NCBI GenBank assembly: GCA_963817375.1
Contig: CAWFOB010000006.1
Location: forward strand, 285,208-349,207
Direction of reading: 5' to 3'
Length of the DNA stretch: 64,000 bases
DNA from: an uncultured Thermoleophilia bacterium
GTDB lineage: Bacteria > Actinomycetota > Thermoleophilia > Gaiellales > Gaiellaceae
Shown: in pieces, positions 3,727 to 57,280 of the stretch
How the letters are laid out: each line of letters opens with the position of its first letter
Position numbering within the stretch: the first letter of the stretch is position 1
Notes under the pieces: generated by a model
The model's database searches: none
What the model saw: the letters and a program-made list of their open reading frames with translations, nothing else
What the model was told of the DNA's origin: nothing
Translations under genes and position numbers: made by a program

Positions 3727-4806
3727 ATGCCACGGACGCTGCTGCTCGTCGGCACGCGCAAGGGATGTTTTCTGCTGGAGAGCGACGCCGACCGGCGCGA
3801 CTGGGCCATGCGCGGCCCGTACTGCGAGGGCTGGCCCGTGTACCATGCCGTCCACGACGCGGGGACGGACACGATCTTCGCGGCGGCCGCGAGCGAGTGG
3901 CACGGCTCGGCCGTTTGGCGCAGCTCCGACCGCGGGGAGACGTGGGAGCACTCGAGCGAGGGCATCGCGTACGACGCGGACGCCGGGCGCAAGGTCTCGA
4001 AGGTCTCGAACCTCGCCGTCAAGAACGGGCGCGTGCTCGTCGGCGTCGAGGCGCCGGGGATCTTCGAGAGCCGGGACGGCGGCTCGACCTGGTCGCTGCT
4101 CTCGACGCTGTCCGGCGAGCCGGGCAGCGAGGTCTGGGACGACCCGGCCAGCCAGCCGCCGGGCCACCTCGGCATCTCCGCGCTGATGTTCGACCCGGAC
4201 GAGGATGACCGCTTCTGGGCCATCGTCCAGGGCATCGGCCTGTTCGAGACCGCCGACTATGCCGAATCGTGGACGCCGCGGAACCGCGGCCTGCGCGCCG
4301 ACTGGCCGCGCGAGCACGAGGAGGTCGGCTTCTGCGTCCACAAGCTCGTGCGCTCCCCCGTCGACGGCGACCGCATGTACCAGCAGAACCACGTCGGCAT
4401 GCACCGCTCGGACGACGCCGGCCACACGTGGACGGAGATCACCGAAGGGCTCCCCACCGAGTTCGGGTTCGCCGCCGCGACGCACCCGCACGACCGGGAC
4501 ACGTTCTACGTCGTGCCGCTCGACCCCCTGCACGCGCGGACGATGCCTGACGGCCACGCCGCCGTCTGGCGCACGCGGGATGCGGGCTCGAGCTGGCAAC
4601 GCCTCGACCGCGGCCTGCCGCAGGACAACGCGTTCGTCGGCGTGCTCCGCGAGGGGATGGCGATCGACACCTACGACCAGCCGGGCCTCTACTTCGGCAC
4701 GAGCACCGGCCAGATCTTCTCGAGCGTCGACGAGGGCGAGACGTGGAGCCAGATCGCCGACTACCTGCCGGCGATCTCCTCGGTCGAGGTCGCGATCGTC
4801 GACTGA
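3727..4806 (+). CDS. BNR/Asp-box repeat propeller protein (sialidase-like fold)
   Basis: Five Asp-boxes (SxDxGxTW): SSDRGETWE, SRDGGSTWS, SDDAGHTWT, TRDAGSSWQ and SVDEGETWS. GGAGG lies 8 nt before ATG 3727. An in-frame GTG at 3718 is also possible. Confidence 0.8.
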   Translation: MPRTLLLVGTRKGCFLLESDADRRDWAMRGPYCEGWPVYHAVHDAGTDTIFAAAASEWHGSAVWRSSDRGETWEHSSEGIAYDADAGRKVSKVSNLAVKNGRVLVGVEAPGIFESRDGGSTWSLLSTLSGEPGSEVWDDPASQPPGHLGISALMFDPDEDDRFWAIVQGIGLFETADYAESWTPRNRGLRADWPREHEEVGFCVHKLVRSPVDGDRMYQQNHVGMHRSDDAGHTWTEITEGLPTEFGFAAATHPHDRDTFYVVPLDPLHARTMPDGHAAVWRTRDAGSSWQRLDRGLPQDNAFVGVLREGMAIDTYDQPGLYFGTSTGQIFSSVDEGETWSQIADYLPAISSVEVAIVD

Positions 4807-5069
4807 TGGCCGACGTCCACCTTCCGCGCACGCTGATGCCGCTCTTCGACGGCCTGCCGAACCGCCTCGACGTCGAGGCGCCGACCGTCGGCGCCGCCAT
4901 CGACCGGCTCGACGACCAGTGGCCCGGGCTCCGCGATCGCCTGTGCGAGCCCGGGCCGCTGCTACGCCCGCACATCCACGTGTACGTCGATCGGGAGCGG
5001 GCCGCGCTCGACACTCCACTTGCAACCGCCGCCCGCGTGGACGTGATCGCGGCGATCAGCGGCGGCTGA
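4806..5069 (+). CDS. MoaD/ThiS-family beta-grasp protein ending in Gly-Gly
   Basis: ATG 4806 overlaps the upstream TGA (ATGA). The 87-aa product ends ...ARVDVIAAISGG-stop. The layout ...TVGAAIDRLDDQWPGLRDRL...IHVYVDRE... is typical of the sulfur-carrier / ubiquitin-like fold. Confidence 0.7.
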   Translation: MADVHLPRTLMPLFDGLPNRLDVEAPTVGAAIDRLDDQWPGLRDRLCEPGPLLRPHIHVYVDRERAALDTPLATAARVDVIAAISGG

Positions 5070-5428
5070 CGAGCCGCGACTGCCGCTCACTGGGGTTCCT
5101 GGACCGCCACCCAGACGAGGCCGCTGCCGGTAGCGACTGCCGCCCGCAGGGTGGGAGCGGTGGCGATCCGCGCGACAACACGTCCTGTGATCGGGTCGAT
5201 CGGGGTGAGCGTGCCGAGCCCTCGACGCGCCCCAGCCTCGAGCAAGTCGCTCCTGCGGCCAAGCGACTCGTCTCGCTGACTGGGGCGCGTCCAGGGCTGC
5301 CGCTCCGGCCCCTGTGCTCTGGCCATCGGCGGGTGCTCGCCGGACTGGTCCCTCGAACGGGGGTCGCCACGTACGGTGGCTCCAGGCCGAAGCCCGCGGC
5401 GGCGCTCCACACACCACGGGCTGTTCTA

Positions 5429-5510
5429 TGGGGGCGGGAGGATTCGAACCTCCGAAGGCTGAGCCAACGGGTTTACAGCCCGTCCCCTTTGGCCGCTCGG
5501 GAACACCCCC
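5429..5510 (-). tRNA. tRNA-Tyr (anticodon GTA), class II with long variable arm, CCA not encoded
   Basis: The reverse complement folds by hand as follows. Acceptor GGGGGTG/CGCCCCC. Anticodon loop CTGTAAA. Variable arm TGGCTCAGCCTTC. T-arm GGAGG-TTCGAAT-CCTCC. Discriminator A. Confidence 0.9.
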
Positions 5511-5549
5511 GGGACGCCGGATTGTAGCCGGGGCGTAGCATCGACCCCG

Positions 5550-6689
5550 ATGGAGCGGTTCGACGTCGTCGTCGTTGGTGCAGGGCCCGCCGGGTCGACG
5601 GCCGCACACAATCTCGCGCGCGCGGGCGCCCGCGTGGCGCTGCTCGAGCGTGCGACCTTCCCGCGCGACAAGCCGTGCGGCGGCGGGCTGACCGGCCGCG
5701 CGCTGCGCGAGGTCCCCGTGGACGTCTCGCCCGTCGTCGAGCACGAGGTCGACCGGATGGAGCTCGGGCTGCGCTACAGGCGACGGATCTCGCGACGCTC
5801 GCGCGGCCGCCTCGTGGCGATGACCCAGCGCATCCGTCTCGACGCGTACCTCGCGGAGCAGGCCGCCGCGGCCGGGGCCGATCTGCGTGACGGAACGAAG
5901 GTCACAGCCGTGCGCGACGGCCAGGTGGACACGGCCCACGGCACGCTCTCAGCCGAGGCCGTCATCGGCGCCGACGGCGTCAACGGCGTGACCGCGCGCT
6001 CGTTCCGGCTTGAGCAGCGGATCACCTATGGGGTGGCGCTCGAGGGCAACGTCCCGAACGCCGCGGCCCGGGCCGAGCGCTTCGCCGGTACCGCCGTCGT
6101 CGAGCTCGGCACGATCGCGGGCGGATACGGCTGGGTCTTCCCGAAAGGCGACCATGTCAACGTCGGGGTCGGCGGGTGGGAGCACGAGGGACCGCACCTC
6201 CGCGAGCACCTGTGGCGCCTGTGCGACGAGCACGGGATCCCGCGGGCAGCTGTCGAGGCGCTGCGCGGCTACCGGCTGCCGCTCCGGCGGCCGCCGACGT
6301 CACCTGCGCGCGGGCGGGTCGCACTCGTCGGCGACGCCGCCGGCCTGGTCGACCCGCTGTCGGGCGACGGGATGTACGAGGCGTTCGTCAGCGGCCGGCT
6401 CGCCGCGGGCGCGGCTCTCGACCTCCTTGCCGGGCGCGAGCAGACGCTCGAGCCGTACTCGGCGGCGCTCGACCGCGCGATCGGCGCCCACGCCGCCGCC
6501 TCGTGGAAGGCGAAGCTGGCTCTCGATCGCTTCCCCCGGCTCACGTTCGCGCTGCTCGCACTGCCGCCGGTCTGGCAGGCCGTCGACGCGCTCGTCCGCG
6601 GCGACCTCGCCCATCCCGGCGAGGCGCGCGGGGTGGCACGTGTGCCGCTGCGCGCCGTCGACGTGATCGGGCGCCGCGGCAGCGCGTAA
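5550..6689 (+). CDS. Geranylgeranyl reductase family FAD-dependent oxidoreductase
   Basis: N-terminal dinucleotide fold MERFDVVVVGAGPAGSTAAHNLARAGARVALLER followed by FPRDKPCGGGLT, plus GDAAGLVDPLSGDGM. Confidence 0.85.
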   Translation: MERFDVVVVGAGPAGSTAAHNLARAGARVALLERATFPRDKPCGGGLTGRALREVPVDVSPVVEHEVDRMELGLRYRRRISRRSRGRLVAMTQRIRLDAYLAEQAAAAGADLRDGTKVTAVRDGQVDTAHGTLSAEAVIGADGVNGVTARSFRLEQRITYGVALEGNVPNAAARAERFAGTAVVELGTIAGGYGWVFPKGDHVNVGVGGWEHEGPHLREHLWRLCDEHGIPRAAVEALRGYRLPLRRPPTSPARGRVALVGDAAGLVDPLSGDGMYEAFVSGRLAAGAALDLLAGREQTLEPYSAALDRAIGAHAAASWKAKLALDRFPRLTFALLALPPVWQAVDALVRGDLAHPGEARGVARVPLRAVDVIGRRGSA

Positions 6690-6775
6690 CTCGACCGAAC
6701 CTGGCAAAAACTAGGCGCAGCTCCCTCGTTCGGGGTAAACCGTTCTGCGTTACCTGCCGATCCCTGCGTCGCGGC

Positions 6776-9415: not shown

Positions 9416-10282
9416 ATGGCGGCCAAGCTCACACCGATCGTCCTGCGTCTCGCGATCCCGGCGGTCGTCGTCGTCCTGTCAACGGCGGCGATCTCCTTCG
9501 CGGCCGCCGGTGGCAGCACGCCGCGCCCCGTCGCGGCGGCGCCGGCCGCCCGCCCGGTCGTTCGCGTCCCGGACGTCACCGGCCAGGTCTTCGTCTTCGC
9601 CAAGGGGATGCTCGAAGACGCCGGGTTCGCCTGGCGCGTCCAGGGCTCCATCGGCGGCTATGCGGCCAACGTCGTAACCTCGCAGTACCCCAGCGCGGGC
9701 ACCCGCGTCGTGGACGACGGCATGCCGACTGTCCGCGTCACGCTCACCGCGAGCCGCAGCTACCCGCAGCGGGGCGAGCCCGAGAACACCTCGCCCTACA
9801 CGGGCAGCGCGATCGTCCTGCCCACGGCCAAGCCGGTGATCAAGAAGCCGGTGGTCAAGAAGCCGGTGGTCAAGAAGCCGGTGGTCAAGAAGCCGGTCGT
9901 CAAGAAGCCGGTCAAGAAGCCCGTGGTCAAGAAGCCCGTGGTCAAGCGGCCGGTCGTCACGCCGGCGCAGCGCCCCCCGGCGTTCGTCGTCCCCGGCGCG
10001 CCGAAGGAGCCGCTCGACGAGATCACGCTGACGGCGCGCGCCGACGAGCTGAGCGCGTGGGTCCAGGCGCATCCCACCAAGACCGACGCCAACGTCAACC
10101 ACTGGCTCTACCAGCACGCCTGGATCGTGACCGGCGCGAACTTCGGCTGGTACCACGGCGACCAGGCACTGAAGAAGCTCGTTGTCGTCGACAATCGCGT
10201 CATCGATCTCTGGGGTGTCGGCTCGCGCAGCCGCGCAGTCGCCACCCGCGCCCTCAGGGGGGTCGAGGCAAAGGCGCGGTGA
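9416..10282 (+). CDS. Membrane-anchored PASTA-domain protein with (KKPVV)n linker
   Basis: TM helix LRLAIPAVVVVLSTAAISFAAA. PASTA-like VRVPDVTGQVFVFAKGMLEDAGFAWRVQGS...VVTSQYPSAGTRV. Lys/Pro/Val pentapeptide repeats. The C-terminal domain is unassigned. Confidence 0.7.
   Translation: MAAKLTPIVLRLAIPAVVVVLSTAAISFAAAGGSTPRPVAAAPAARPVVRVPDVTGQVFVFAKGMLEDAGFAWRVQGSIGGYAANVVTSQYPSAGTRVVDDGMPTVRVTLTASRSYPQRGEPENTSPYTGSAIVLPTAKPVIKKPVVKKPVVKKPVVKKPVVKKPVKKPVVKKPVVKRPVVTPAQRPPAFVVPGAPKEPLDEITLTARADELSAWVQAHPTKTDANVNHWLYQHAWIVTGANFGWYHGDQALKKLVVVDNRVIDLWGVGSRSRAVATRALRGVEAKAR
9830..9958 (+). repeat. In-frame 15-bp tandem repeat (aagaagccggtggtc, about 8 units, one 12-bp unit) encoding KKPVV
   Basis: Read directly from lines 9781-9960. 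Units differ only at synonymous or near-synonymous positions. Confidence 0.9.
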
Positions 10283-10851: not shown

Positions 10852-12224
10852 CGACCGTCCGGCAGTTCTTCGCGCGGCCCGCGTTCGCGGCCGACGGTTA
10901 CGCCCTGCCGATGGCGATCGGCACGATGATGATTCTCACGATCATCGCCGGGGTCCTGATGGTCCTGAGCGGCGCCAACCAGGCCGCGACGTCGCGGGCG
11001 TCCGGCGACGCCACCGCGCTGGCGCTGGCGGAAGACGGCCTCAACAACGCGCTCGCGGTCCTCGCTGCGGCGGACGCTCCGCTCAGCCCGACGGCCATCC
11101 AGCCGGGGTCCCAGGCGCGCGACGACGGGACGGCCGCGTACGACGCCTCGCTCTCCGGCTCGACGTGGACGATCACCGGCACCGGAACGGCCCCGTCGAC
11201 GACGGCCGGCACCGGCGACATCGTTCGGACGGCGTCCGTCCAGGTCGTGGTGACGACGGACGGCACGACGTGGCAGTACCTCTTCGCCGACGACCAGGCG
11301 GGATGCCTGACCGTCCCCGCGGGTGCGACGGTGGCCACGCCCATCTACGCGCGCGGGAACCTCTGTCTCGGCGCCAACGCCGGGGTCGTCGGCGCGCCCG
11401 TCCAGGTGGACGGCACGGTGACGCTCGGCCCCGGGGCGTCGATCGGGACGGCTGGGACGCCGGTCGCCGAGGCCGACCTCGCCGGCGGCTGCACAGGTGG
11501 CGCCCCGGACCCGCATCCGTGCAGCGCCGCCGACGGCGTCTACGCAACGTCGCTCACCCAGACGACGGCCGGGCTGACCAAACCGGCCGTCGACCTCAGC
11601 GGCTGGTACGCCAACGCCAAGCCCGGCCCGAGCAACGCGTGCACGTCCGGCAATGTCCCCGGCGACTTCGACGACGACACGGCGCTCAACCGCAGCCGCG
11701 CGACGTTCGACCCGACGAGCGGCGCCGCCTACGATTGCCAGTACTGGGCCGGCGGCAAGCTCCTGGGCCGGCTCGCGTGGAGCCCGGCGACGAACACGCT
11801 CACCGCGCTCGGCACGATCTTCTTCGACGGCCCCGTCACGTTCGCCGGCGACGCCACGTACAGCGGGCGGGCCACGATCTACTCCTCGTCCACGATCACG
11901 ATCGGCGGCGGCGTGCACGTCTGCGGCGTCCCCGCCTGCGACGCGACGTGGGACCCAGGCACGAACCTGCTGGTGCTCGTCGCCGGCGATCCGGCGGCCA
12001 CGTACGGCGCCGACCTCGGCAACGACGCTGTTTTCCAGGGCGCCGTCTACGCGGTCACGGACTACCGGGCCGGCACGGACACGCAGAACTGGGGCCCGGT
12101 CATCGCTCGGCAGCTCTCACTCAACGACGACGTGGGCCAGGCGATCCCGCTTGGCTCGCTTCCGCCCGGCGCCCCCGGAGCGGCTTCCACCATCCACACG
12201 GTTTCCGGCACCTGGAGGGGCTGA
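10848..12224 (+). CDS. PilX_N-like pseudo-prepilin protein, 458 aa (paralogue 1)
   Basis: ATGA overlap with the upstream gene. N-terminus ...AADGYALPMAIGTMMILTIIAGVLMVLSG. The C-terminal module is shared with the next two ORFs (DGVYAT...TKPAVD..WYANAKPGP..CTSG...YDCQYW...GTIFFDG...). Confidence 0.7.
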   Translation: MTTVRQFFARPAFAADGYALPMAIGTMMILTIIAGVLMVLSGANQAATSRASGDATALALAEDGLNNALAVLAAADAPLSPTAIQPGSQARDDGTAAYDASLSGSTWTITGTGTAPSTTAGTGDIVRTASVQVVVTTDGTTWQYLFADDQAGCLTVPAGATVATPIYARGNLCLGANAGVVGAPVQVDGTVTLGPGASIGTAGTPVAEADLAGGCTGGAPDPHPCSAADGVYATSLTQTTAGLTKPAVDLSGWYANAKPGPSNACTSGNVPGDFDDDTALNRSRATFDPTSGAAYDCQYWAGGKLLGRLAWSPATNTLTALGTIFFDGPVTFAGDATYSGRATIYSSSTITIGGGVHVCGVPACDATWDPGTNLLVLVAGDPAATYGADLGNDAVFQGAVYAVTDYRAGTDTQNWGPVIARQLSLNDDVGQAIPLGSLPPGAPGAASTIHTVSGTWRG

Positions 12225-12228
12225 GGAC

Positions 12229-14190
12229 ATGAACAAGCTACTGAGAAGGCTTCGAGGGGAAGACGGGCAGGCGCTCGTGATGGTCATCGTCATGATCATC
12301 ACGCTCTCCGTCACGACCGTCACGGTCGTCGAGTTGACAGGCGCCGGGTCACGGAGCGGAAAGCGCGACGCGGCCAATAGCAGCGCATACGACCTGGCGG
12401 AAGCCGGGCTCGCCACCGCGTTCTCGAAGCTCTCGGCAGCGGCCGACCCGACCGTCAGCACGCTGCTGCCAAGCACGGTGGTGAACATGAACGGGGGCAC
12501 CGTCACCTACTCGGGCACCTACTCGCAGCCCACCTGGTCGATCACCTCGACCGGGTCGATCAAGAACCCGTCCGACCCGACGGGCGGCGCGGTCAAGCGC
12601 ACGCTCACGGAGACGGCGACGCTGAACCCGTTGGTCCCGGGCGCGACCGTGGCGGCGTGGGACCGCGTCTTCCAGGCCTTGCCCGGCTGTCTGAACATCC
12701 CCGACACCGTCCACATCCCCGCGTCGGTGGGGGCAAAGGGCGACATCTGCCTGCACGGCGACGCGACCATCACGGGCGCGAGCTCGAACGTCGAGGCGGG
12801 CGGGAACGTCGTCATGGACGGCACCCCGTCGTCCAACCAGCCTCAGGACCCGGCAACCGCGTCGGGCTGGACGACCAGCACCAACGTGTACACGAGCAAC
12901 AACACCTACGCGACCAACTCGGTCGCGAAGAGCTCGAACGGCGCGTATCTGACGGTGACCAACTGGGGCTTCACCATCCCGGCCGGCGCGACCATCCTCG
13001 GGATCCAGCTCAACATCGAACACAAGGCCTCGGCGACGAGCTCCCTGAAGGACGAAACGGTCCAGCTGCTGAAGGCAGGCACTGCAACCGGCGCCAACAA
13101 GGCGGTGACCGGCACGCTCTGGGGCACGACGGACACGACCGTCGGCTACGGCGCTGCGAACGACCTCTGGTCGGCCGCGTGGACGCCGACGGACATCAAC
13201 GCGAGCACGTTCGGCGTGCGCCTCCGGGTCGCCAACGCGAACAGCTCGAGCTCCCGCACCGCCAGCGTCGATTACGTGAACATGACCGTGACCTACCAGA
13301 CGGTGAGCGCGGTGATCGGGACGTCGGGGACGCCGGTCAACAGCGTCCAGGTCGGCGGAAAGTGCCAGTACGGGTCGATGCCTCAGCACACGCCCTGCAG
13401 CTCGTCGGACGGCGTCTACGCAACGACGGTCGGCACGTCGCCGCCAGACCTGACCAAGCCGTCGATCGACTTCGCCTACTGGTACGCGAACGCGAAGCCG
13501 GGCCCGATGCACAACTGCACGAGCGGAAGCTTCCCGCGCGGCTTCGACAACAACGGCGTCTATGACAACAGCCTCCCGTCGTCGAACGACAGCTTGGAGG
13601 GCGACATGACCCCGCATAGCTCGAGCTACGACTGCCAGTACTGGGAGAACGGCCAGATGGTGGGGCAGATCGCCTGGGACCACGTGTCCCACGTGATGAA
13701 GATCAAGGGGACGATCTTCATCGACGGCGACGTTCGCTGGGACGAGGACGGAGCGGTCAGCGACTACCAGGGCCGCGGGATCATCTACTCCGCCGGCGAC
13801 ACCGAGTTCGACGAGGTCGTCTGCGCCGGCGGAAACGGGACGAACGATTGCTACACGGGCAACATGAGCGCCTGGGACCCGAACCAGAACATGTTGATCA
13901 TCGTCGCCGGCGGGTCGGCCGAGTACGACCAGGGCGCCACCTGCTGCCCGTTCCTGCCCGGCGCGTTCCAGGGGGTGATGTGGGCGAAGGACACGTGCCA
14001 CATCCACCAGGACTTCCGCTCGAGCGGGCCGATCATCTGCGACACCGTCCTGATCGACGACGAGCAGGGCCCGTCCGACCCGACGTTCTATTCCTGGCCG
14101 CCGCTGCAGTCGCTGATCGCGGGCCAGATGTACGGGTCGTTCGGCAGCGCATCGGGCTACAGCCTGACCTTAGGAGGAGAGAAGGGGTGA
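12229..14190 (+). CDS. PilX_N-like pseudo-prepilin protein, 653 aa (paralogue 2)
   Basis: Internal ATG 12229 of ORF 11653..14190. N-terminus MNKLLRRLRGEDGQALVMVIVMIITLSVTTVTVVELTG. Alignable over its full length with 14190..16178. Confidence 0.7.
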   Translation: MNKLLRRLRGEDGQALVMVIVMIITLSVTTVTVVELTGAGSRSGKRDAANSSAYDLAEAGLATAFSKLSAAADPTVSTLLPSTVVNMNGGTVTYSGTYSQPTWSITSTGSIKNPSDPTGGAVKRTLTETATLNPLVPGATVAAWDRVFQALPGCLNIPDTVHIPASVGAKGDICLHGDATITGASSNVEAGGNVVMDGTPSSNQPQDPATASGWTTSTNVYTSNNTYATNSVAKSSNGAYLTVTNWGFTIPAGATILGIQLNIEHKASATSSLKDETVQLLKAGTATGANKAVTGTLWGTTDTTVGYGAANDLWSAAWTPTDINASTFGVRLRVANANSSSSRTASVDYVNMTVTYQTVSAVIGTSGTPVNSVQVGGKCQYGSMPQHTPCSSSDGVYATTVGTSPPDLTKPSIDFAYWYANAKPGPMHNCTSGSFPRGFDNNGVYDNSLPSSNDSLEGDMTPHSSSYDCQYWENGQMVGQIAWDHVSHVMKIKGTIFIDGDVRWDEDGAVSDYQGRGIIYSAGDTEFDEVVCAGGNGTNDCYTGNMSAWDPNQNMLIIVAGGSAEYDQGATCCPFLPGAFQGVMWAKDTCHIHQDFRSSGPIICDTVLIDDEQGPSDPTFYSWPPLQSLIAGQMYGSFGSASGYSLTLGGEKG

Positions 14191-16178
14191 TGAAGAGGCT
14201 GCTCCTGGAGAGACTCGCCATGCGTTCGCATGTGGGCTTCGCCCTCATGCGTTCGCATCAGGGCTTTGCCCTCCCGATGGCGATCGGCGTGATGATGGTG
14301 CTCTCGATCACGACGGTCGCAGTCATCGAGTTGACAACGGCCGGCGCCCGTAGCGGCAAGCGCGACGCGGCGAACGGCTATGCGTACCAGCTGGCCGAGG
14401 CTGGGCTCGCGGCCGCGCTCTCCAAGCTCGACGCGGCGGCGGATCCGACCGTGTCGACGCTCCTCCCGAGCACGACGATGAACCTGGCCGGCGGCTCGGT
14501 CACCTTCTCCGGCAGCTACACGCAGCCCGACTGGACGATCACCGCGACCGGCACGTCGGCCAACCCGACGTCGAACGCCGGCTCCGTGCGCAGGACGGTG
14601 ACCCAGGTGGCGACGATCCAGCCGCTCGTGCCGGGCGCGACCGCCGCCGAATGGGACCGTGTCTTCCAGGCTTCGAACAGCTGTTTCACCATCCCCAGCG
14701 GCGTCCACGTGCCGAGCAACCTCACCGCCAAGGGCAGCATCTGCCTGCAGGGCAGCGCCACCATCACCGGCAGCTCGACCACCGTCGAGGCTGGTGGCAA
14801 CGTCACCCTGACCGGCGCCTCCGCGTCGTCGTCCTTCGGCGATCCGGCCGCCGCCACCGGCTGGACGAACAGCACGCGCGTCAGCTCGAGCAACGACTCC
14901 TACGCGACCGCGTCGATCGCGAAGAGCGCCAACAGCGCCTACCTGGACTCGACCAGCCTCGGGTTCTCGATCCCGAGCACGGCGACCATCCTGGGCATCC
15001 AGGTGCAGATCGAGCGCAAGGCCTCGAACACGAGCTCGATCGACGACGACACCGTGCAGCTGATCAAGGCCGGGACGGCGACGGGCGCGAACAAGGCGGC
15101 GTCCGGCTCGATGTGGGGGACGAGCGATGCGACGGTCAGCTACGGCAGCGGGTCAGACATGTGGTCGACGACCTGGACGCCGGCGCAGGTCAACGCGACC
15201 AACTTCGGCGTCCGCCTCCGCGCGACGAACAACAACACGTCCTCGTCTCGAACGGCGAGCGTCGACTACATCCGCGTCGACGTCACCTACGAGACCGTCA
15301 ACCCGCTGATCGGAACGTCCGGCACGCCGGTCGAGAGCGTCCAGGTGGCCGGCACGTGCAAGTACGGCTCCGCCACGGCGCACACGCCGTGCAGCTCAAC
15401 GGACGGCGTGTACGCCTCGTCGGTGACGACGAGCCCCACGGACCTCGTCAAGCCGTCGATCGACTTCAACTACTGGTATGCGAACGCGAAGCCCGGTCCG
15501 ATGCACAACTGCACGAGCGGAAGCTTCCCGGGCGGATTCGACAACAACTCGGTCTACGACAAGAGCCTGCCCGACTACGGCAACCAGAACGAGGACCTCG
15601 ACGTCACGCCGACGAACACGAGCTACGACTGCCAGTACGTCGAGAACGGCACGCTGATCGGGCGGATCGCCTGGAACCACGTCTCACACGTGATGACCAT
15701 CAAGGGGACGATCTTCATCGACGGCGACGTCCGCTGGGACAAGGACGGCCAGCTGACGAACTACAACGGGCGGGCGATCATCTACGCGGGCGGCGATACC
15801 GAGTTCGACGAGGTCGTGTGTGCCGGCGGGAGCGGCTCGTACAACTGCCGCAACGGCGACATGACCGCCTGGGATCCGAACGCGAACATGATGATCATCG
15901 TGGCCGGCGGCTCGGCCGAGTACGACCAGGGCGAGAACTACGACCCGGCGGCATTCCAGGGTGTGATGTGGGCGAAGGACACGTGCCACGTCCACCAGGA
16001 CTTCCGCTCGAGCGGGCCGATCATCTGCGACACCATCCTGATCGACAACGCCGAGGGCAACGGCCTGCCGACGTTCTACAGCTGGCCTCCGCTCCAGTCG
16101 CTCATCGCCGGGCAGATCTACGGCTCGTTCGGCAGCGCCTCGGATTACGCGCTCCTCCTGGGGCCGGAGCGGGGTTGA
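14190..16178 (+). CDS. PilX_N-like pseudo-prepilin protein, 662 aa (paralogue 3)
   Basis: ATG 14190 overlaps the upstream TGA. N-terminus ...HQGFALPMAIGVMMVLSITTVAVIELTT. Tandem paralogue of 12229..14190. Confidence 0.7.
   Translation: MKRLLLERLAMRSHVGFALMRSHQGFALPMAIGVMMVLSITTVAVIELTTAGARSGKRDAANGYAYQLAEAGLAAALSKLDAAADPTVSTLLPSTTMNLAGGSVTFSGSYTQPDWTITATGTSANPTSNAGSVRRTVTQVATIQPLVPGATAAEWDRVFQASNSCFTIPSGVHVPSNLTAKGSICLQGSATITGSSTTVEAGGNVTLTGASASSSFGDPAAATGWTNSTRVSSSNDSYATASIAKSANSAYLDSTSLGFSIPSTATILGIQVQIERKASNTSSIDDDTVQLIKAGTATGANKAASGSMWGTSDATVSYGSGSDMWSTTWTPAQVNATNFGVRLRATNNNTSSSRTASVDYIRVDVTYETVNPLIGTSGTPVESVQVAGTCKYGSATAHTPCSSTDGVYASSVTTSPTDLVKPSIDFNYWYANAKPGPMHNCTSGSFPGGFDNNSVYDKSLPDYGNQNEDLDVTPTNTSYDCQYVENGTLIGRIAWNHVSHVMTIKGTIFIDGDVRWDKDGQLTNYNGRAIIYAGGDTEFDEVVCAGGSGSYNCRNGDMTAWDPNANMMIIVAGGSAEYDQGENYDPAAFQGVMWAKDTCHVHQDFRSSGPIICDTILIDNAEGNGLPTFYSWPPLQSLIAGQIYGSFGSASDYALLLGPERG
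14220..14273 (+). repeat. 27-bp in-frame tandem duplication (MRSHVGFAL / MRSHQGFAL)
   Basis: atgcgttcgcatgtgggcttcgccctc is followed directly by atgcgttcgcatcagggctttgccctc. Confidence 0.9.
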
Positions 16179-20390: not shown

Positions 20391-20831
20391 TCACGTCGCC
20401 GCGTTGCAGTCCGTGAGGACCGGGCCGGGATCCTGTGTGATGGAGCCGGCCGGGCTGTTCTTGAAGTAGGTCGAACCGCCCTGGGTGGCGTAGATGCAGT
20501 AGGTCGTCGTCGTCGGGGCCGGGCTGGCCGAGACGTTCACCTTGGCTGCGCTGCCCGGGTCGTAGTACGAGATGCCCGGCGTGGCGGCCGTCGATGCGTT
20601 GCTGAGGCCGACGTAGGTGCCGTTGTCGGCGTAGAACGCCTCGACGGCGGGGACGGCGGCCCGGACGTTGGCCTGGGAGGCCGTGGCCTCGGCCTTGCTC
20701 TTGAAGCCGATGTAGGACGGGACGGCGATCGCGAGCAGGATGCCGAGGATGATGATTACGACCAGGAGCTCGATGAGCGTGAAACCGCCCTCGACGTTCC
20801 CCTGTGCGATCCGATTCTTGAGCCTGTTCAT
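20391..20831 (-). CDS. pilA: Type IV major pilin, copy 2 (146 aa)
   Basis: MNRLKNRIAQGNVEGG|FTLIELLVVIIILGILLAIAVPSY. C-terminal Cys pair (YCIY...TDCNAAT). GGAGG precedes ATG 20831. Confidence 0.9.
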   Translation of the reverse strand: MNRLKNRIAQGNVEGGFTLIELLVVIIILGILLAIAVPSYIGFKSKAEATASQANVRAAVPAVEAFYADNGTYVGLSNASTAATPGISYYDPGSAAKVNVSASPAPTTTTYCIYATQGGSTYFKNSPAGSITQDPGPVLTDCNAAT

Positions 20832-20999
20832 GGTGCCTCCGTTCGGCGTGCGGTACGGCTTGGCCGCGGCCGGGGCGCCCACTGAGGGGGATGCCGCACG
20901 GGATGAATCGGCTCCCGATCGAATACGGCGTACCCTCGATCGGGGGTGCCGATCCTCCAGTGGGGGGCGCGCCGTTTCCCCGAACGCTCCCCGAAATGA

Positions 21000-21027
21000 C
21001 GGAGGGCGCGGTTGCCCGCGCCCTCCC
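21000..21027 (-). terminator. Stem-loop downstream of pilin copy 1
   Basis: cggagggcgcgg-ttgc-ccgcgccctccg, about 22 nt beyond the stop at 21050..21052. Confidence 0.5.
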
Positions 21028-21049
21028 GCACCGTTCGTGAAGCCGTGGC

Positions 21050-21490
21050 CTAGGTGGCCGCGTTGCAGTCCGTGAGGATCGGGCCGGGATCCTTCGTGAT
21101 CGCACCGGCCGGGCTGTTCTTGAAGTAGGTGGAACCGCCCTGGGTGGCGTAGACGCAGTACGTCGTCGTCGTCGGGGCCGGGCTGCCCGAGACGCTCACC
21201 TTGGCCGCGCTGCCGGGATCGTAGTACGAGATGCCAGGCGTGGCGGCCGTCGATGCGTTGCTGAGGCCGACGTAGGTGCCGTTGTCGGCGTAGAACGCCT
21301 CGACGGCGGGGACGGCGGCCCGGACGTTCGCCTGGGCGGCCGTCGCCTCGGCCTTGCTCTTGAAGCCGATGTACGACGGGACGGCGATCGCGAGCAGGAT
21401 GCCGAGGATGATGATTACGACCAGGAGCTCGATGAGCGTGAAACCGCCCTCGACGTTCCCCTGTGCGATCCGATTCCTGAGCCTGTTCAT
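21050..21490 (-). CDS. pilA: Type IV major pilin, copy 1 (146 aa)
   Basis: MNRLRNRIAQGNVEGG|FTLIELLVVIIILGILLAIAVPSY. By hand alignment it differs from copy 2 at 8 of 146 residues. Confidence 0.9.
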   Translation of the reverse strand: MNRLRNRIAQGNVEGGFTLIELLVVIIILGILLAIAVPSYIGFKSKAEATAAQANVRAAVPAVEAFYADNGTYVGLSNASTAATPGISYYDPGSAAKVSVSGSPAPTTTTYCVYATQGGSTYFKNSPAGAITKDPGPILTDCNAAT

Positions 21491-43490: not shown

Positions 43491-43877
43491 ATGGCAAATT
43501 CGGTCGACACGATCTTCGAGGAGCTCGGGAAGATGAGCGTCCTCGACCTCGTGCAGCTGAAGAACAAGATCGAGGAGGAGTGGGGCATCACCGCCGCCGC
43601 TCCGGTCGCGGCTGTCGGCGTGGCTGCGCCGGCGGGCGGCGACGGTGGCGGCGCAGCCGAGGAGCAGACGGAGTTCAACGTCGTCCTCAACGCCGCCGGC
43701 GGCCAGAAGATCCAGGTGATCAAGGTCGTCCGCGCGGTCACCGGCCTGGGCCTGAAGGAGGCCAAGGATCTGGTCGACAACGCCCCGAACGCGGTCAAGG
43801 AGGGCGTGCCCCGCGAGGAGGCCGACTCGATCAAGGCACAGCTCGAAGAGGCCGGCGCCGAGGTCGAGGTCAAGTAG
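43491..43877 (+). CDS. rplL: 50S ribosomal protein L7/L12
   Basis: ...[68 protein letters not shown]. Confidence 0.97.
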
Positions 43878-43880
43878 TCG

Positions 43881-43939
43881 CCACGCCGCTGACGCGGCGT
43901 GGTTAGGCGGGTAGAGGCGCTGAACGCGCCTCTACCCGC
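43881..43939. terminator. Two adjacent GC-rich hairpins between convergent rplL and the GT-C gene
   Basis: ccacgccgc-tgac-gcggcgtgg (43881..43902) and a perfect 14-bp stem gcgggtagaggcgc / gcgcctctacccgc (43907..43939). The second lies within the last codons of the minus-strand ORF. Confidence 0.5.
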
Positions 43940-45930
43940 ACGCTCCGGCGTCCGGTGTCCATACGGGCTTCGTCGCCCGCATGCCGAGCAGCCGGTTGGC
44001 GCTCAGCACCAGGTGGTCGACGCTGAACGTCGCCCGCCAGCGTGCGCTGCCGCAGGCCGTCAGGCTCGACCGTCCGCGTCTCTCCGGGCAGCATGTGGAT
44101 CCGGCTCCGGCCGGCGGGCGTCCGCACCCAGAGCGTGGCGGCGTCGTCCGTCGCCAAGCGGTGCACCGTGAAGCGGATGCGGCCCGCGATGCGCGGCCCC
44201 CACAACCGGAACGAGCCGGCGTTCCCGAGCCAGCCGTCGCGGTACCAGCCGGTCGCGTAGTAGGTGAGGCGCGGCGTGCCGGCCGGCTTCCAGAGCGCGT
44301 ACGCCTGGGAGGCGGCAACGCGCTGCGCGCCCCGCAGCGCGATCACGGCGGCGCCGCCGTCGACGAGCAGCGGCTGATCGAGGGGGCGGCCGGCGTCGAG
44401 GAGGGTGCCGTCGCGCGCGATTGAGAGCTTGTCCGCGCGGTAGGCGTCGAGCGGCGGGGCGCCGGGGAGCAGCAGGATCCGCTTCACCGAGCGGTTCCAG
44501 AACAGCTGCTCGAGGCCCTCCTTCGGAATGCCCTTGCTGTAGACCAGGGCGACGTCCCCGACGGCTGCGTGGTCGACCCACGAGCGGTCGGCGGGCAGGT
44601 AGTCGCGGCGGACTGCGCGGTCATAGCGGAGGTCGTACGAGGTCGCGGCGAACGCGGTCGCGGCGGGCGCGGCGATCGCCAGCGCGGTCACCAGGAGCGT
44701 CGCCCGGCGCATGCGTGCGAGGAGCGCGCAGGCGACGGCCAGCAGCCCGGCGACGAGGGCGACGACGAGCGAGCCGCCGCCGACGCCGCCGAACACCTCC
44801 TCCGACCGCGTGACCGCGAAGAGCACGGGCGCGTGATCCTTGCCGAGCGCGACGGCGTAGCCCGAGAGCGGCGTCGTCGCGGCGAGGACCAGCAGCCCGG
44901 CGCAGATGAGCGCGTACGCCCGCCACCACGGCCAGCCGCGCCCCGCGTGCACGGCGAATCCGACCGCCAGCAGCGGGACGGCGTAGAAGACGTAGCGCTC
45001 CTGCATCTGGCCCGTGTCGCCCCACAGCGCGGCCTGGAGAAGGAGCGCGGCGACGAAGGGCACCGTGAACGCCGCAAGTGCAAGCTCCGCGCGCGTGCGC
45101 GGGTGTGCGAAGGCGCCGGCGAGCCCGAGCGCTGCGCCGGGGACAACGACCAGCCCGGCGCCGTAGAGCAGCGCGAGGCCCTGCGTCGCGACGCGGTGCG
45201 CCAGGCTTGCCGGCCCGAAGTCGAGGCCCCAGAGGACGTCGCCGTACTGCCCGACGGTGCCGTGCGCGGCGTACGCGGCGGCCGCCAGCACCGCTGCGCC
45301 GAGGACGACCCACTGGCGCCGGAGGGTCCAGAGCAGCTGCCGCTCGCGGATGTCCATGAGCACGGCCGCGGCGAGGAGGCAGAGCGGGAGCACGAGCAGC
45401 TGCGCGCGCGCGAGCCCGGCGAGGCCCGCGACGCCGAGGAACGCGACCTGCGCACCTGCGGTCGGCCGGTCGAGCGCGCGGATGCCGAGCCACGCGGCGA
45501 GCAGCGTGAGCGGATAGGCGAACGGCTCGCTCAGCACCCAGCCGCTGTAGAGGAGGTCGGGCAGGGCCAGGGCAAGCGCGGCGACCGCGACCGCCAGGTG
45601 CTCGGACACGCCGACGCGCCGCGCGAGCAGGTAGACGGGCACGGCCGCGAGCGACATGACGACGGCGTTCGCGAGCTGGATGGCGTGGTAGGCGTCGGCC
45701 ACGTCGCCGAGGAGCCACGCCGGCGCCGTCAGGAGCGGCTGGAGCAGCCCCGGGAACGTCGCGTGCTGCCCGCGCACGAGCGGCCGGCCGACCGTCGCGA
45801 TCGACCGGCCGAGCTCCGAGTACAGGTACTCGTCCGGGAAGTACATGGGCGTCTGGCGCGCGAAGCCCGCGACCGTGCGGACAACGGCGCTTGCGACGAC
45901 GACGAGGGAAAGCGCCTGCCAGCCGGCCAC
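43903..45930 (-). CDS. Polytopic membrane glycosyltransferase-like protein (GT-C fold, ArnT/PMT family 39-like) with C-terminal soluble domain
   Basis: ORF 43903..46020. Its first 30 codons have low third-position GC, so GTG 45930 is preferred as the start. YFPDEYLYSELGRSIA motif after TM1, then about 12 hydrophobic segments. Confidence 0.55.
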   Translation of the reverse strand: MAGWQALSLVVVASAVVRTVAGFARQTPMYFPDEYLYSELGRSIATVGRPLVRGQHATFPGLLQPLLTAPAWLLGDVADAYHAIQLANAVVMSLAAVPVYLLARRVGVSEHLAVAVAALALALPDLLYSGWVLSEPFAYPLTLLAAWLGIRALDRPTAGAQVAFLGVAGLAGLARAQLLVLPLCLLAAAVLMDIRERQLLWTLRRQWVVLGAAVLAAAAYAAHGTVGQYGDVLWGLDFGPASLAHRVATQGLALLYGAGLVVVPGAALGLAGAFAHPRTRAELALAAFTVPFVAALLLQAALWGDTGQMQERYVFYAVPLLAVGFAVHAGRGWPWWRAYALICAGLLVLAATTPLSGYAVALGKDHAPVLFAVTRSEEVFGGVGGGSLVVALVAGLLAVACALLARMRRATLLVTALAIAAPAATAFAATSYDLRYDRAVRRDYLPADRSWVDHAAVGDVALVYSKGIPKEGLEQLFWNRSVKRILLLPGAPPLDAYRADKLSIARDGTLLDAGRPLDQPLLVDGGAAVIALRGAQRVAASQAYALWKPAGTPRLTYYATGWYRDGWLGNAGSFRLWGPRIAGRIRFTVHRLATDDAATLWVRTPAGRSRIHMLPGETRTVEPDGLRQRTLAGDVQRRPPGAERQPAARHAGDEARMDTGRRSVRVEARSAPLPA

Positions 45931-46010
45931 ACGCGGGAACGCCAGGGCAGGACGAACTGCTACCGCGCGTTGCATAAGAAGGCGTATCGGCGTAACCCAA
46001 ATCGGCTTAA

Positions 46011-46415
46011 ATCCGCTCAAGTAGCCTCCATCTCGAGGGGCTGTCCCCGGTCTGCCCTCCGAGCCCCCACTCCCCTTCGTGCCAACAGGGGGCTGTCCCT
46101 CGCGTATCTAGCGACGAAGCGGCTGGCCTTAGCCGCTTGGGCAGGCGCCCCGGTCGCCAGTCACGCGTGGGAGGGGCGGCGGTCGATTCCGCTCAAGTAG
46201 CCAACATCTCGAGGGGCTGTCCCCGGCTCACCCCGCGACCCGTCGCCCCTCTCGAAACGAAGGGGGCTGTCCCTCGCGTGACTCGCGACCGAGGCGCTTG
46301 CCCAAGCGGCTAAGGCCAGCTGCTTCGTTCCTAGATACGCGAGGGACAGCCCCCTGTTGGCTCGAAGGGACGGTGGGGCTTGGAAGGCAGCCGGGGACAG
46401 CCCCTCGATGTTGTG
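46011..46415. repeat. Nested cluster of three copies (two direct, one inverted) of a repeat unit of about 150-176 nt carrying paired GGGGCTGTCCC boxes
   Basis: ccgctcaagtagcc occurs at 46013 and 46189. Boxes occur at 46037, 46088, 46213 and 46262 (+) and at 46342 and 46393 (inverted). The stretch 46082..46167 recurs inverted at 46275..46360 with 6 mismatches by hand count. Confidence 0.8.
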
Positions 46416-46589
46416 CGTCTTAGGCTGCACGTCGGTTGCTACACTGCTCGTTCCTACCCCACGGCGGGCCCGAAAGCCTTGCGCGAGGGTGGGTTCAGCC
46501 GCTACGCTGCACGGTTCGCCACGTCTCAGCTTCGGCTTCGCCTGTCCGCACCCAGTCTTCACAACCAGTTCTGAGGGAGGTCTCTCCTT

Positions 46590-50234
<3,645 letters not shown>

Positions 50235-54904: not shown

Positions 54905-54940
54905 CGCGAGGCCCGGCATCTGCCGGGCCTCGCGTCGTTC
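54905..54940 (+). terminator. Rho-independent-type terminator after rpoC
   Basis: cgcgaggcccggca / tgccgggcctcgcg inverted repeat followed by tcgttct, 22 nt after the TAA. Confidence 0.6.
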
Positions 54941-54955
54941 TAGGCTTACCCCGGC

Positions 54956-55348
54956 ATGACCGCGAAGCCTCTTCTCGTCCTCCTCGCCGCCGGCACATGC
55001 GCAGCGGCCGCCACGGCGGCGTCGGGCTCGCCGAGCGGGACCCACAGCGCGACGCTCACGGGGGCCAAGCCGGCGGCGCTGAACGGCAGGTGGCAGGTCG
55101 ACTTCGGCACCTCACGGGCCCTTCGCATCGTCCGCAACGGGAAGGTCGTCGTTCTGTCGACGGCAACGCCGCTCGCCGGCCGCCATCTCAGGATCCACGA
55201 TGTCTTCGGGCCATACGCGTGCAGCAAGTCCGACGGCGACGGCGTGTACCGCTACGCGCTCGCAGGGCGTCGGCTTACCTTCACGACGGTGTCCGACCTG
55301 TGCATCGGCCGGAAGCTCGTGCTGACGACGAAGCCCTTCCTGAAGTAG
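54956..55348 (+). CDS. Small secreted protein or lipoprotein candidate (130 aa)
   Basis: Signal-like MTAKPLLVLLAAGTCAAAATAASG. ORF 54956..55348. I recognise no family. Confidence 0.6.
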   Translation: MTAKPLLVLLAAGTCAAAATAASGSPSGTHSATLTGAKPAALNGRWQVDFGTSRALRIVRNGKVVVLSTATPLAGRHLRIHDVFGPYACSKSDGDGVYRYALAGRRLTFTTVSDLCIGRKLVLTTKPFLK

Positions 55349-55480
55349 GGGCTGTCCCCGTGTCAGCGGGGGCTGTCCCCCGTGCGTGCATAGGACAGCG
55401 CCCGGATTCAACCGGACAGTTCTCCCGAAGACCGAGACATCGCCCGATCACTGGGGACAGCCCCCTTCGGGGACAGCCCC
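55348..55480. repeat. Second locus of the GGGGCTGTCCCC-box family: two direct boxes and two inverted boxes forming a long imperfect inverted repeat
   Basis: Boxes at 55348..55359 and 55368..55381 (+) and at 55453..55465 and 55469..55480 (inverted). GTAG immediately precedes the first box. Confidence 0.75.
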
Positions 55481-55519
55481 GGCAGCGTCTTCATACCTAA
55501 CTGGTACAAAGGCCGCGCC

Positions 55520-57280
55520 GTGAAGAAGCTCCTGCTCCTCGGCGCTTTCGCCGCGCTCGCGCTCGCCCCGGCGGCCGCGGCGCGCCCCTTTGCCGCGCCG
55601 CCCGCGACGCCTCCGGGCTGCGACCTCCCGGCGCAGCGCCCGCTCTGGATCGACTTCGGGGACGGCTCCGTCCCGTTCTGGCAGCAGATCTTCGCGAGGC
55701 CGGGGGTCGTCGCCGCCGCCTCGAACTTCCTCGTCCCGCCCAAGCTGCGCGCCGCGGGCGCGAAGACCATCTACTGGGACATGCATCTGTCGAACCGCGT
55801 CGGGACGCCGCAGAAGCCGCTGAGCCCGGCCGGGATCGTCGACCAGGCCGACCGGCTCTTCATGCGCGCGGTCGCCTCCTCGGGCTGCGCGACGCCGGTG
55901 ATCGCGCTGAACGAGCTCTTCGGCGCCGGCACGGCGACGCCCTGGTCGGACTCCAACACGCAGTACCGCGCGAACGTGCTCACGCTGCTCCGGCGGCTCT
56001 CGACGCTCGGCGCCCGCCCCTACCTGCTGATCTCGAGCCCGCCCTACACGGGCGGTGACGCGGCGCAGTGGTGGCGCGACGCCTCGCAGGTCGCCGACCT
56101 CGTGCGCGAGGTCTACTTCTCCGGGCCGCGCATCTCGCAGCAGGGGCCGCTGCTCGGCAGCCGCACGATGCGCGACGCCCTGCGCAACTCGATCGAAGCC
56201 TTCACGGACATCGGCATCCCCCCGTCGGGCCTCGGCGTGATGCTCGGATTCCACACGACGAAGGGGATCGGATCCGGGCGCGAGGGGCTCAAGCCCGCGA
56301 GCGCCTGGTTCGACGTCGTCAAGCTCGAGGCGCTTGCCGCCCGCCAGGTCGCGGGCGAGGAGGCGATCGGCTCCGTCTGGTCGTGGGGCTGGGGCGTCTG
56401 GAGCAAGGGCGAGACCGACCCCGACAAGGAGGCGGCCGCCTGCGTCTGGCTGTGGGCGCGCGACGCCTCGCTCTGTGACGGGCCGAAGCTCGCCGGTGAC
56501 GGTTTCGACGTCTCGCGCACCGAGGGGCTCCTGCCCGCGGGCGTCCAGTGCGCTCTCGGCACGAGCGTGGTGACCCGCTCGGCGCTCACGGCGGTGACGA
56601 AGCTCACCGGCGACACGGACGCCGCGCTGAGCGCGCTCCAGGAACGGCTCGTGCTCGCCCAGGCGACGAACCTGACCAGCTCGGAGCTCGACGCCGCCGA
56701 AGCGCAGGTCGTCGCGCGCTGGTTCGGCGGCCGCTTCGCCCGCTACGAGGCGGCGCTTGCGCACGCGGGCATCTCGCGATCGCTCGCCCGGTCGATCATC
56801 GATACGCAGGCACGCGAGCTCAAGATCCGCCACTCGCTCCACGTCGCCGCGCCGACGTCCGCCGAGATCCTCGACTGGTACACGAGCTACGCCACCGAGC
56901 CCGCGCGCGTCGTCGACGCGACGCCGGCGCCCTGGTGGCTCGGCCGTCGCACGCACGGCGTCGCGCTCTCCGCGACCGCCCCGGCCGCCGTCCTCACTGC
57001 GCTTCCCGGCGCCACGCCGCTGCTCATCCCGACGACGACCGGCTTCACGCGCGTCACCGTCGGCGAGCCGGCGATGCCGCTCGGCGCCTACCCGCTGTCG
57101 CTGGCGACGCCCGCGATCAGCGCCGCGCTGGTCGAGTCGAAGCAGCTGACCGCATTCGAGAACTGGCTCCTTGCGCGCCAGACGGCCGCGCTCCGCAGCA
57201 CCGTCTGCATCCGGGACGAGCTACCGTCGCCCGAACCAGTCGATCTGACTGGGTTCGTGCCGTTCCTCGCGCTCGCCTGA
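55520..57280 (+). CDS. Secreted hypothetical protein (586 aa)
   Basis: GTG start. Signal peptide MKKLLLLGAFAALALAPAAAARP. Protein-like throughout. I recognise no family. Confidence 0.65.
   Translation: MKKLLLLGAFAALALAPAAAARPFAAPPATPPGCDLPAQRPLWIDFGDGSVPFWQQIFARPGVVAAASNFLVPPKLRAAGAKTIYWDMHLSNRVGTPQKPLSPAGIVDQADRLFMRAVASSGCATPVIALNELFGAGTATPWSDSNTQYRANVLTLLRRLSTLGARPYLLISSPPYTGGDAAQWWRDASQVADLVREVYFSGPRISQQGPLLGSRTMRDALRNSIEAFTDIGIPPSGLGVMLGFHTTKGIGSGREGLKPASAWFDVVKLEALAARQVAGEEAIGSVWSWGWGVWSKGETDPDKEAAACVWLWARDASLCDGPKLAGDGFDVSRTEGLLPAGVQCALGTSVVTRSALTAVTKLTGDTDAALSALQERLVLAQATNLTSSELDAAEAQVVARWFGGRFARYEAALAHAGISRSLARSIIDTQARELKIRHSLHVAAPTSAEILDWYTSYATEPARVVDATPAPWWLGRRTHGVALSATAPAAVLTALPGATPLLIPTTTGFTRVTVGEPAMPLGAYPLSLATPAISAALVESKQLTAFENWLLARQTAALRSTVCIRDELPSPEPVDLTGFVPFLALA

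Follow-up and report, generated by a model that had tools for sequence, protein, structure and literature searches.

Upstream of rpoB in a 64-kb stretch of DNA from an uncultured soil bacterium of the Thermoleophilia (Gaiellaceae; the whole stretch is called the window below), positions 46012-46422 hold nested direct and inverted repeats. They are probably two copies, one complete and the other truncated, of a non-autonomous repeat that resembles bacterial interspersed mosaic elements (BIMEs) and REPINs, the hairpin-forming doublets of repetitive extragenic palindromes (REPs), and that would be mobilised by a Y1 transposase of the REP-associated tyrosine transposase (RAYT) or terminal-inverted-repeat-associated (TIRYT) type. 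The repeats form a dispersed family, they turn over at the rpoB site, and in other lineages the same short box accompanies RAYT-like genes; from this we infer mobilisation by a Y1 enzyme in a Gaiellales-type organism. The position of the rpoB promoter is putative as well.

The building block of the family is a 12-nt box, GGGGCTGTCCCC, often with (G)TA in front. It is a mini-palindrome, GGGG-CTGT-CCCC, with a 4-bp stem, and its orientation is set solely by the 4-nt core. Six exact GGGGCTGTCCC boxes lie within 46011-46415 (46037+, 46089+, 46213+, 46263+, 46343- and 46394-), where an earlier reading of this DNA from its letters (the sequence-only reading) had placed them, and a second cluster holds four more (55348+, 55369+, 55454- and 55470-). 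With up to one mismatch the box matches 10 times in 64 kb against 2.8 expected, a number reached by none of 100 shuffles. A full element consists of two GGGGCTGTCCCC boxes, a centre of about 70 nt and two inverted boxes, such that either strand can be folded into a long hairpin. The parts are as follows.

46012..46187, + strand: copy A, a truncated element of 176 nt
46012-46036: outer arm of copy A, TCCGCTCAAGTAGCCTCCATCTCGA
46037-46048, 46049-46088 and 46089-46100: box 1, spacer S1 and box 2 of copy A
46100-46168 and 46168-46179: centre of copy A, in 'reverse' orientation, and a degenerate box, TGGGAGGGGCGG
46188..46422, + strand: complete type-1 element of about 235 nt (copies B and C of the sequence-only reading)
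46188-46212, 46213-46224, 46225-46262 and 46263-46274: its outer arm, box, spacer S2 (about 39 nt) and second box
46274-46342: its centre (69 nt)
46342-46353, 46354-46392 and 46393-46404: its inverted box, spacer S1' (about 39 nt) and second inverted box
46405-46422: its other outer arm, TCGATGTTGTGCGTCTTA, ending in TA
46046-46172 and 46270-46396: arms of the large A/C inverted repeat (127 nt, 87% identity), for which a hairpin or cruciform is possible
55346..55481, + strand: type-2 family member of the same plan, with shorter spacers of 10 and 5 nt
55348-55359, 55369-55380, 55381-55452, 55453-55464 and 55469-55480: its two boxes, centre and two inverted boxes

The internal relationships described in the sequence-only reading held in every detail compared. 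The 176-nt direct period between copies A and B is real (46012-46076 against 46188-46252, 78% identity), with similarity fading beyond about 65 nt, and an inverted counterpart of the 86-nt stretch 46082-46167, with exactly six mismatches, lies at 46275-46360. An imperfect palindrome formed by B and C, previously given as 75 bp around 57 nt, also exists and is rather longer than that: 78 of 104 positions are complementary around a centre near 46308, gaps allowed. Folding in silico, which had been proposed, gave -194 kcal/mol and z = -20.5 for 46005-46435 as single-stranded DNA; the other fold of an element gave z = -4.6.

An assembly artefact at the A/B junction was considered and ruled out, because independent short-read assemblies of two other soil metagenomes contain contigs that match 46066-46227 and 46157-46307 exactly, apart from one single-base gap. 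A fold-back chimera was likewise rejected: the arms of A and C differ by 13%, unlike those of a chimera. Copy A is present in two of the metagenome contigs (X25 and X26) and missing from a third, near-identical one (X27), in which the left flank is joined directly to 46188.

A family scan of one genome per species with the pattern box-N60-90-inverted box returned at least 83 loci. Among the matches listed, at least 23 loci belong to five uncultured metagenome-assembled genomes (MAGs) of Thermoleophilia, and at least 10 of them to a single MAG, the closest relative, which also holds the orthologous rpoB region (L079, 90-95% DNA identity to the window). Another MAG holds the orthologue of window positions 53.5-59.8 kb (L046). 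The arrangement of boxes is nearly always '> > centre < <', with the inner boxes 51-83 nt apart in at least 20 copies. Two types can be told apart: type 1 resembles the element at 46.2 kb (L004 and L079), and type 2, with about 20 copies among the matches listed, resembles that at 55.4 kb. Copies elsewhere are 71-92% identical to those of the window. The complete element at 46188-46422 has homologues of 74-81% identity at the same site (L079) and at another site of the same MAG (L004), and a non-orthologous copy in a different MAG (L001) shares 92% identity with the 55.4-kb copy. Type-2 centres share a conserved, asymmetric core, CAGTGATCGGGCGAnGTCTCGGTCTTCGG ... GTGCAnGCAC.

All elements examined are intergenic, and most lie against a gene's 3' end (distance -4 to +4 nt). 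There, the outermost box is directly preceded by TA, usually that of the neighbour's stop codon; the stop codon TAG (55346-55348) of the small open reading frame (ORF) 54956-55348, for example, overlaps the first box of the 55.4-kb element. As for a GT[AG]G foot, roughly half of the outermost boxes have TA directly before them, with G ahead of the TA in 8 of 13, and inner boxes have GAAG, GCAG or CAG instead. In soil metagenome X1, contig depth over the boxes rises to 248 from about 8 in the flanks, roughly 30-fold. High copy number and extragenic location, the marks of REPs and REPINs, are both found here, in a dispersed family that forms dimers and clusters. No covarying pairs beyond the box stem were found in a consensus RNA structure of 15 type-2 centres, and Rfam, searched at gathering and permissive thresholds with the whole window and both loci, gave only chance matches to microRNA-like hairpins; the repeat is therefore one of DNA and not a structured RNA gene. 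A literature search by box sequence returned unrelated eukaryotic matches only.

Comparison of the rpoB site in relatives, another of the checks proposed earlier, revealed no repeat, a different array, one copy, or the one and a half copies of the window. The features of the site and its forms in the relatives are listed here.

43903..45975, - strand: divergent upstream gene for a 690-aa multi-pass membrane protein
46438..46446, + strand: putative rpoB extended -10, TG-C-TACACT (TGnTAnACT), from conservation
46590..50234, + strand: rpoB coding sequence with a TTG start (Pfam RNA_pol_Rpb2 domains on the L088 orthologue)
L086, upstream protein 84% identical to that of the window: no box in the 198 nt that separate the two start codons
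L088, upstream protein 66%: site empty
L089, upstream protein 67%: site empty
L085, upstream protein 87%: three direct GGGACAGTCCC boxes and one inverted, of the GGGAC(A/T)GTCCC type
L084, upstream protein 90%: degenerate type-1 fragment
L079, DNA 90-95%: single type-1 copy, copy A missing, 176 nt shorter than the window

In L079, spacer S1 lies on the membrane-gene side and in the window on the rpoB side (S1 87.5% identical), with the centre in the same orientation; a contig from metagenome X1 presents a further form, in which S1 is found on each side. With or without repeats, conserved sequence upstream of rpoB starts only at TTGCTACACT (46437). The motif TTGCTA(C/T/A)ACT is conserved in L079, L084, L086, L088 and L089, and L085 has TGCTACACT, which lacks the first T. 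This block is the putative extended -10 of rpoB, a promoter role suggested by its conservation; the complete element ends 15 nt before it. At the rpoB locus, a sigma-70 consensus scan gave no match, nor did a terminator scan, and there is no T-tract. A metatranscriptome RNA contig starts at 46471, weak evidence on the start of the transcript. Since the site varies among relatives while TGnTAnACT and the leader are kept, the repeats are upstream of the putative core promoter, dispensable and hypervariable, and they are neither the leader nor a required promoter because the conserved leader begins only at 46437.

The conserved block itself (46437-46589, about 150 nt) comprises TTGCTAnACT and a leader of about 140 nt with a GC-rich hairpin region, ..CGGCGGGCC..CCTTGCGCGAGGGTGG... 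Every relative has it, even where the neighbouring protein is only 57-66% identical; it has no Rfam match and could act as a true leader of rpoB or a regulatory RNA. A metagenome scan with a conserved 22-mer from this leader recovered one contig only. As for the divergent gene, homologues of its product were found in Gaiellaceae MAGs (NCBI naming). Its earlier label as a GT-C gene found no support in Pfam: at E <= 0.01 there is no Pfam match for its protein or for those of 54956-55348 (+) and 55520-57280 (+), and a single distant homologue carries PF13231. The RplL sequence of the window had no exact match on record.

Turnover is also evident elsewhere. Type-2 elements at orthologous sites retain their location and one of the outer spacers, and their centre is inverted in two of three pairs (window/L046 and L015/L064, with L026/L076 in the same orientation). 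The presence of the centre in both orientations, first remarked on at rpoB, is general for the family. The centres of these orthologous elements are 57-65% identical, compared with 78-96% for their flanks. Together with the 92% identity of a non-orthologous copy, this low identity is better accounted for by replacement or re-insertion than by mere inversion. Where the other genomes have two terminator-like hairpins, between the stop codons of rplL and the membrane-protein gene, L084 has a small type-2 element (2447-2538).

The window counterpart of L084 2447-2538 is 43877-43903, and the resident hairpin of other relatives, TAGGGGCGC...GCGCCCCTA, is like the ends of the elements. In L088 (about 6640-6760), two hairpins of the form GGGACAGGAT-loop-ATCCTGTCCC lie between the same two genes, their stems starting with the half-box GGGACAG. 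The stretch after rpoC is strain-variable as well: a contig from X1 is without 54940-55500, i.e., the small ORF 54956-55348 and the element (561 nt reduced to 47 nt), and L046 has about 1.6 kb of extra DNA (4944-6541) between rpoC and the small ORF.

The link to Y1 transposases comes from the box. Its complement, GGGGACAG, can be read from all boxes and fits the GGGGWSAS motif shared by the terminal inverted repeats of RAYT-like 'TIRYT' genes, and some of these repeats form families, in dimers or clusters (PMC3733652, PMC6006769). The TIRYT class corresponds approximately to subclass 2.1 (Quentin et al., 2018) and to RAYT group 1 (Bertels et al., 2017). Four-box elements of the same plan were found in Desulfuromonadales (GGGACTGTCCCC-10-GGGGCTGTCCC-centre-GGGACAGCCCC-6-GGGGACAGYCCC), and the same family scan showed box arrays in a Kiritimatiellae MAG and a Flexilinea MAG. 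About 60 loci of 8 kb, drawn at random from outside the Thermoleophilia, contained three such RAYT-like genes; further candidates were sought by a profile search of 1.84 billion representatives filtered by amino-acid composition. The following loci combine such genes with boxes or similar repeats.

L072, Desulfuromusa: ORF 4660-5325, 221 aa, matching Pfam Y1_Tnp (1.8e-13) and, at 81.5 bits (cutoff 80), the NCBIfam family REP-associated tyrosine transposase; a four-box element follows 57 nt downstream of the Y1 gene, and TAGGGACACTCCCC lies about 55 nt upstream
L090/L091: RAYT-like gene, 90% homologue of the L072 gene, in the L072 layout with 20 boxes in 6.7 kb
L052, Desulfuromonadaceae: fragment of a Y1 gene with an adjoining box element
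L024, Kiritimatiellae: RAYT-like gene (73 bits) with box arrays on both sides
L094, 70% GC, alphaproteobacterial: RAYT-like gene with flanks GGGGACAGT ... ACTGTCCCC
L096-L098, 70-72% GC, no assignable taxon: RAYT-like gene with a perfect 12-nt inverted repeat, CCGGGGACAGCT

The RAYT-like protein of L096-L098 is 40% identical over its full length to the L072 homologue P0125, and its repeat CCGGGGACAGCT is comparable to CCGGGGACAGCC, which the window carries at 46391-46402. The suggestion in the sequence-only reading of a REP/BIME- or MITE-like element (MITE, short for miniature inverted-repeat transposable element) is thus supported by a dispersed extragenic family of nested palindromes whose box matches the terminal motif of RAYT-like genes; its alternative of a protein-binding array is compatible with the data but adds nothing to the explanation. 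Two candidates of the gene search were set aside: the most GC-rich one, considered as a Thermoleophilia gene, proved alphaproteobacterial, and L095 has no box. Separately, a Gammaproteobacteria MAG (JAXHNI01) contains a different family of hairpins of about 110 nt (GGCCAGTGCCGGGGGCTGTCCCCCAGGGC ... inverted) with the same box once per arm, in both orientations and at no fewer than 10 loci (L008, L011, L013, L031, L032, L036, L039, L048, L059 and L078).

In the favoured explanation, a single-copy Y1 (HUH) tyrosine transposase of the RAYT/TIRYT type, with its gene at another place in the genome, would act in trans to copy, excise and re-insert the elements. This enzyme would recognise the box, the presumed equivalent of the GGGGWSAS inverted repeats, on single-stranded DNA. 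The inner and outer box pairs act as separable modules, and centres and spacers would for that reason occur in either orientation. The element at the rpoB site would be a selfish passenger, lodged between the rpoB promoter and the divergent gene for the membrane protein, outside the rpoB transcript, and any effect on rpoB, through altered -35 or upstream DNA or through a cruciform, would be incidental.

Several points weigh against mobilisation by a RAYT-type enzyme. Neither the 64-kb window nor 25 Thermoleophilia loci yielded a Y1 transposase gene, and no ORF of about 230 aa lying between inverted box pairs was recovered from the Thermoleophilia loci by a pattern search. The best high-GC RAYT contig (L096-L098) has no assignable taxon, and a tetranucleotide comparison did not discriminate. 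Later surveys found no REP/REPIN population for the GGGGWSAS class of RAYTs (PMC6006769, PMC5581495). At 12 nt with a 4-bp stem, the box is far shorter than canonical REPs of 20-40 nt. The 11-mer common to several phyla may partly reflect convergence or may come from the search itself, and single-box hairpin families, e.g., that of the gammaproteobacterial MAG, were found only because they contain the box. Finally, the MITE of a DDE transposon would be just as consistent with TA flanks and with two binding sites at each end.

Among known systems, the closest parallel is with the terminal repeats of TIRtrons (Di Nocera et al., 2013; PMC3733652), which share the GGGGWSAS fit of GGGGACAG and the occurrence of dimers and clusters elsewhere in the genome; indeed, RAYT-like genes of other lineages are flanked by the window's box. 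Unlike the published families, which are 'moderately abundant' and mainly from Proteobacteria and Acidobacteria, the present one is actinobacterial and consists of regular four-box elements with conserved centres, and a cognate gene was not found in the window and 25 related loci. The repeats also resemble the BIMEs of E. coli and the REPINs of Pseudomonas fluorescens in being extragenic and high-copy, in having inverted doublets that lie about 70 nt apart and fold into hairpins, in their mosaic units and linkers, in what may be a (G)TAG foot supplying stop codons, and in the inferred trans mobilisation by a single-copy HUH Y1 enzyme. GTAG REPs, too, often supply the TAG stop codon of flanking ORFs (PMC3733652). 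However, the unit here has 12 nt and not the 20-40 nt of those imperfect palindromes, and there are two units per side (nested doublets), with the GTAG foot on the outermost boxes only.

Owing to the TA ends, a serious rival is a classical MITE, a deletion derivative of a DDE-type insertion sequence (IS630/Tc1-like) with two transposase-binding repeats at each end that moves by cut-and-paste on double-stranded DNA with TA target duplication; nevertheless, we consider this origin unlikely. In its favour, TA, which is rare in a genome of 71% GC, directly flanks the outermost boxes on one or both sides of most copies, and the terminal inverted repeats have two boxes per end, with type-1 ends reaching TAAGAMGC...TCTCGAGGGG. 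Like Correia elements of Neisseria (CREE/NEMIS) and TA-flanked MITEs (RUP, IS630-derived), the elements measure 100-250 nt, are non-coding with terminal inverted repeats and TA ends, lie near promoters and gene ends, and vary in presence between strains. In contrast to those elements, they have internal repeated boxes, their TA is mostly the neighbour's stop codon (as in GTAG REPs), and no parent insertion sequence or DDE transposase was found. Clustering of ORFs over 83 loci, a limited sample, revealed no recurrent transposase-like ORF beside the elements, and no longer element with these ends was seen. Nor was there a clean empty/filled pair with TA duplication: the L084 element replaces two terminator hairpins and is not inserted, and the empty sites of L086, L088 and L089 are too diverged around the junction for a target-site duplication to be read. 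Moreover, the genes adjoining the box in five lineages are RAYT-like, not DDE.

It is also improbable, and more so, that the repeats are structural sites maintained by the host (terminators, mRNA-stabilising or nucleoid-protein sites), now immobile and spread by recombination or gene conversion. Such a role would agree with strong hairpins at gene 3' ends, between convergent or co-directional genes, with the L084 element standing in for bidirectional terminator hairpins between the membrane-protein gene and rplL, and with module shuffling, which fits recombination at shared boxes. Yet it explains neither the colonisation of new sites, nor the link to RAYT-like genes, nor an identity of 92% between non-orthologous copies against about 60% between orthologous ones; furthermore, the elements have no T-tract, and the rpoB copy lies in a promoter region and not at a 3' end.

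Very little speaks for a programmed inverton, in which a site-specific recombinase would flip the segment between inverted boxes and thereby switch rpoB or the divergent gene, as in fimS or the Mpi-dependent switches of Bacteroides. Nested inverted repeats are indeed present, and a segment between short inverted repeats is seen in both orientations at orthologous sites (the centres in window/L046 and L015/L064, and S1 in window/L079), orientation having been compared between relatives from assembled contigs only. However, the window contains no invertase gene, and the earlier observation that no recombinase or transposase is nearby holds throughout its 64 kb. There is no promoter-like site inside the segment, and the rpoB -10 lies outside it. 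The segment is dispensable, being missing in relatives, and is dispersed as a repeat family, and orthologous centres are far more diverged than their flanks, which argues for replacement and not simple flipping. As for the proposal of a structured rpoB leader RNA or required promoter/operator array, a location directly upstream of rpoB and a very strong predicted secondary structure count for next to nothing against repeats that lie upstream of TGnTAnACT, are absent from L086, L088 and L089 (which keep this motif and the leader of about 140 nt), give way to other arrays in further relatives, recur at unrelated loci, have no Rfam match and precede the RNA contig that begins at 46471 (weak evidence).

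For annotation, the nested repeats before rpoB are a false lead: they are a strain-variable, probably mobile repeat and no conserved regulatory structure, and the conserved signals, a putative extended -10 and a leader of about 140 nt, start downstream of them. A repeat family from the actinobacterial Thermoleophilia would thereby be added to the REP/REPIN world. In practical terms, such elements break short-read assemblies and yield markers that are polymorphic among close strains. Of greater interest is a by-product of the analysis, a box common, across phyla, to the flanks of RAYT-like genes and to four-box elements. Quite tentatively, the box GGGRCWGYCCC may mark a cross-phylum REPIN-type system (Actinomycetota/Thermoleophilia, Desulfuromonadota, Kiritimatiellota and possibly Chloroflexota) run by Y1 transposases of the TIRYT/group-1 class (subclass 2.1), with the nested four-box elements of Gaiellales having inner and outer doublets that are replaced or flipped in situ. 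This is the largest RAYT class, for which no REP/REPIN population has been recognised (PMC6006769, PMC5581495); the lead would give it repeat populations built on a very short box common to distant phyla, and the DNA-recognition rule of these enzymes would become directly testable. Strain-level rearrangements 15 nt before the rpoB -10 could then also tune the expression of RNA polymerase.

The window contains other repeats, found in other parts of the sequence. Five copies of a coding repeat of about 120 nt (..VYALD..TGK.VW..) at 1939-2491 resemble beta-propeller blades, and at 9814-9989 a tandem repeat of 15 nt (once 12 nt) in coding sequence, AAGAAGCCGGTGGTC, occurs in nine overlapping copies and encodes KKPVV-type repeats. 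Three tandem paralogous segments of about 2 kb (11436-16148; spacing 1876-1997 nt, 66-93% identity) apparently represent a triplicated gene, and a 300-nt direct repeat of 94% identity, with copies 659 nt apart, occupies 20395-21353.

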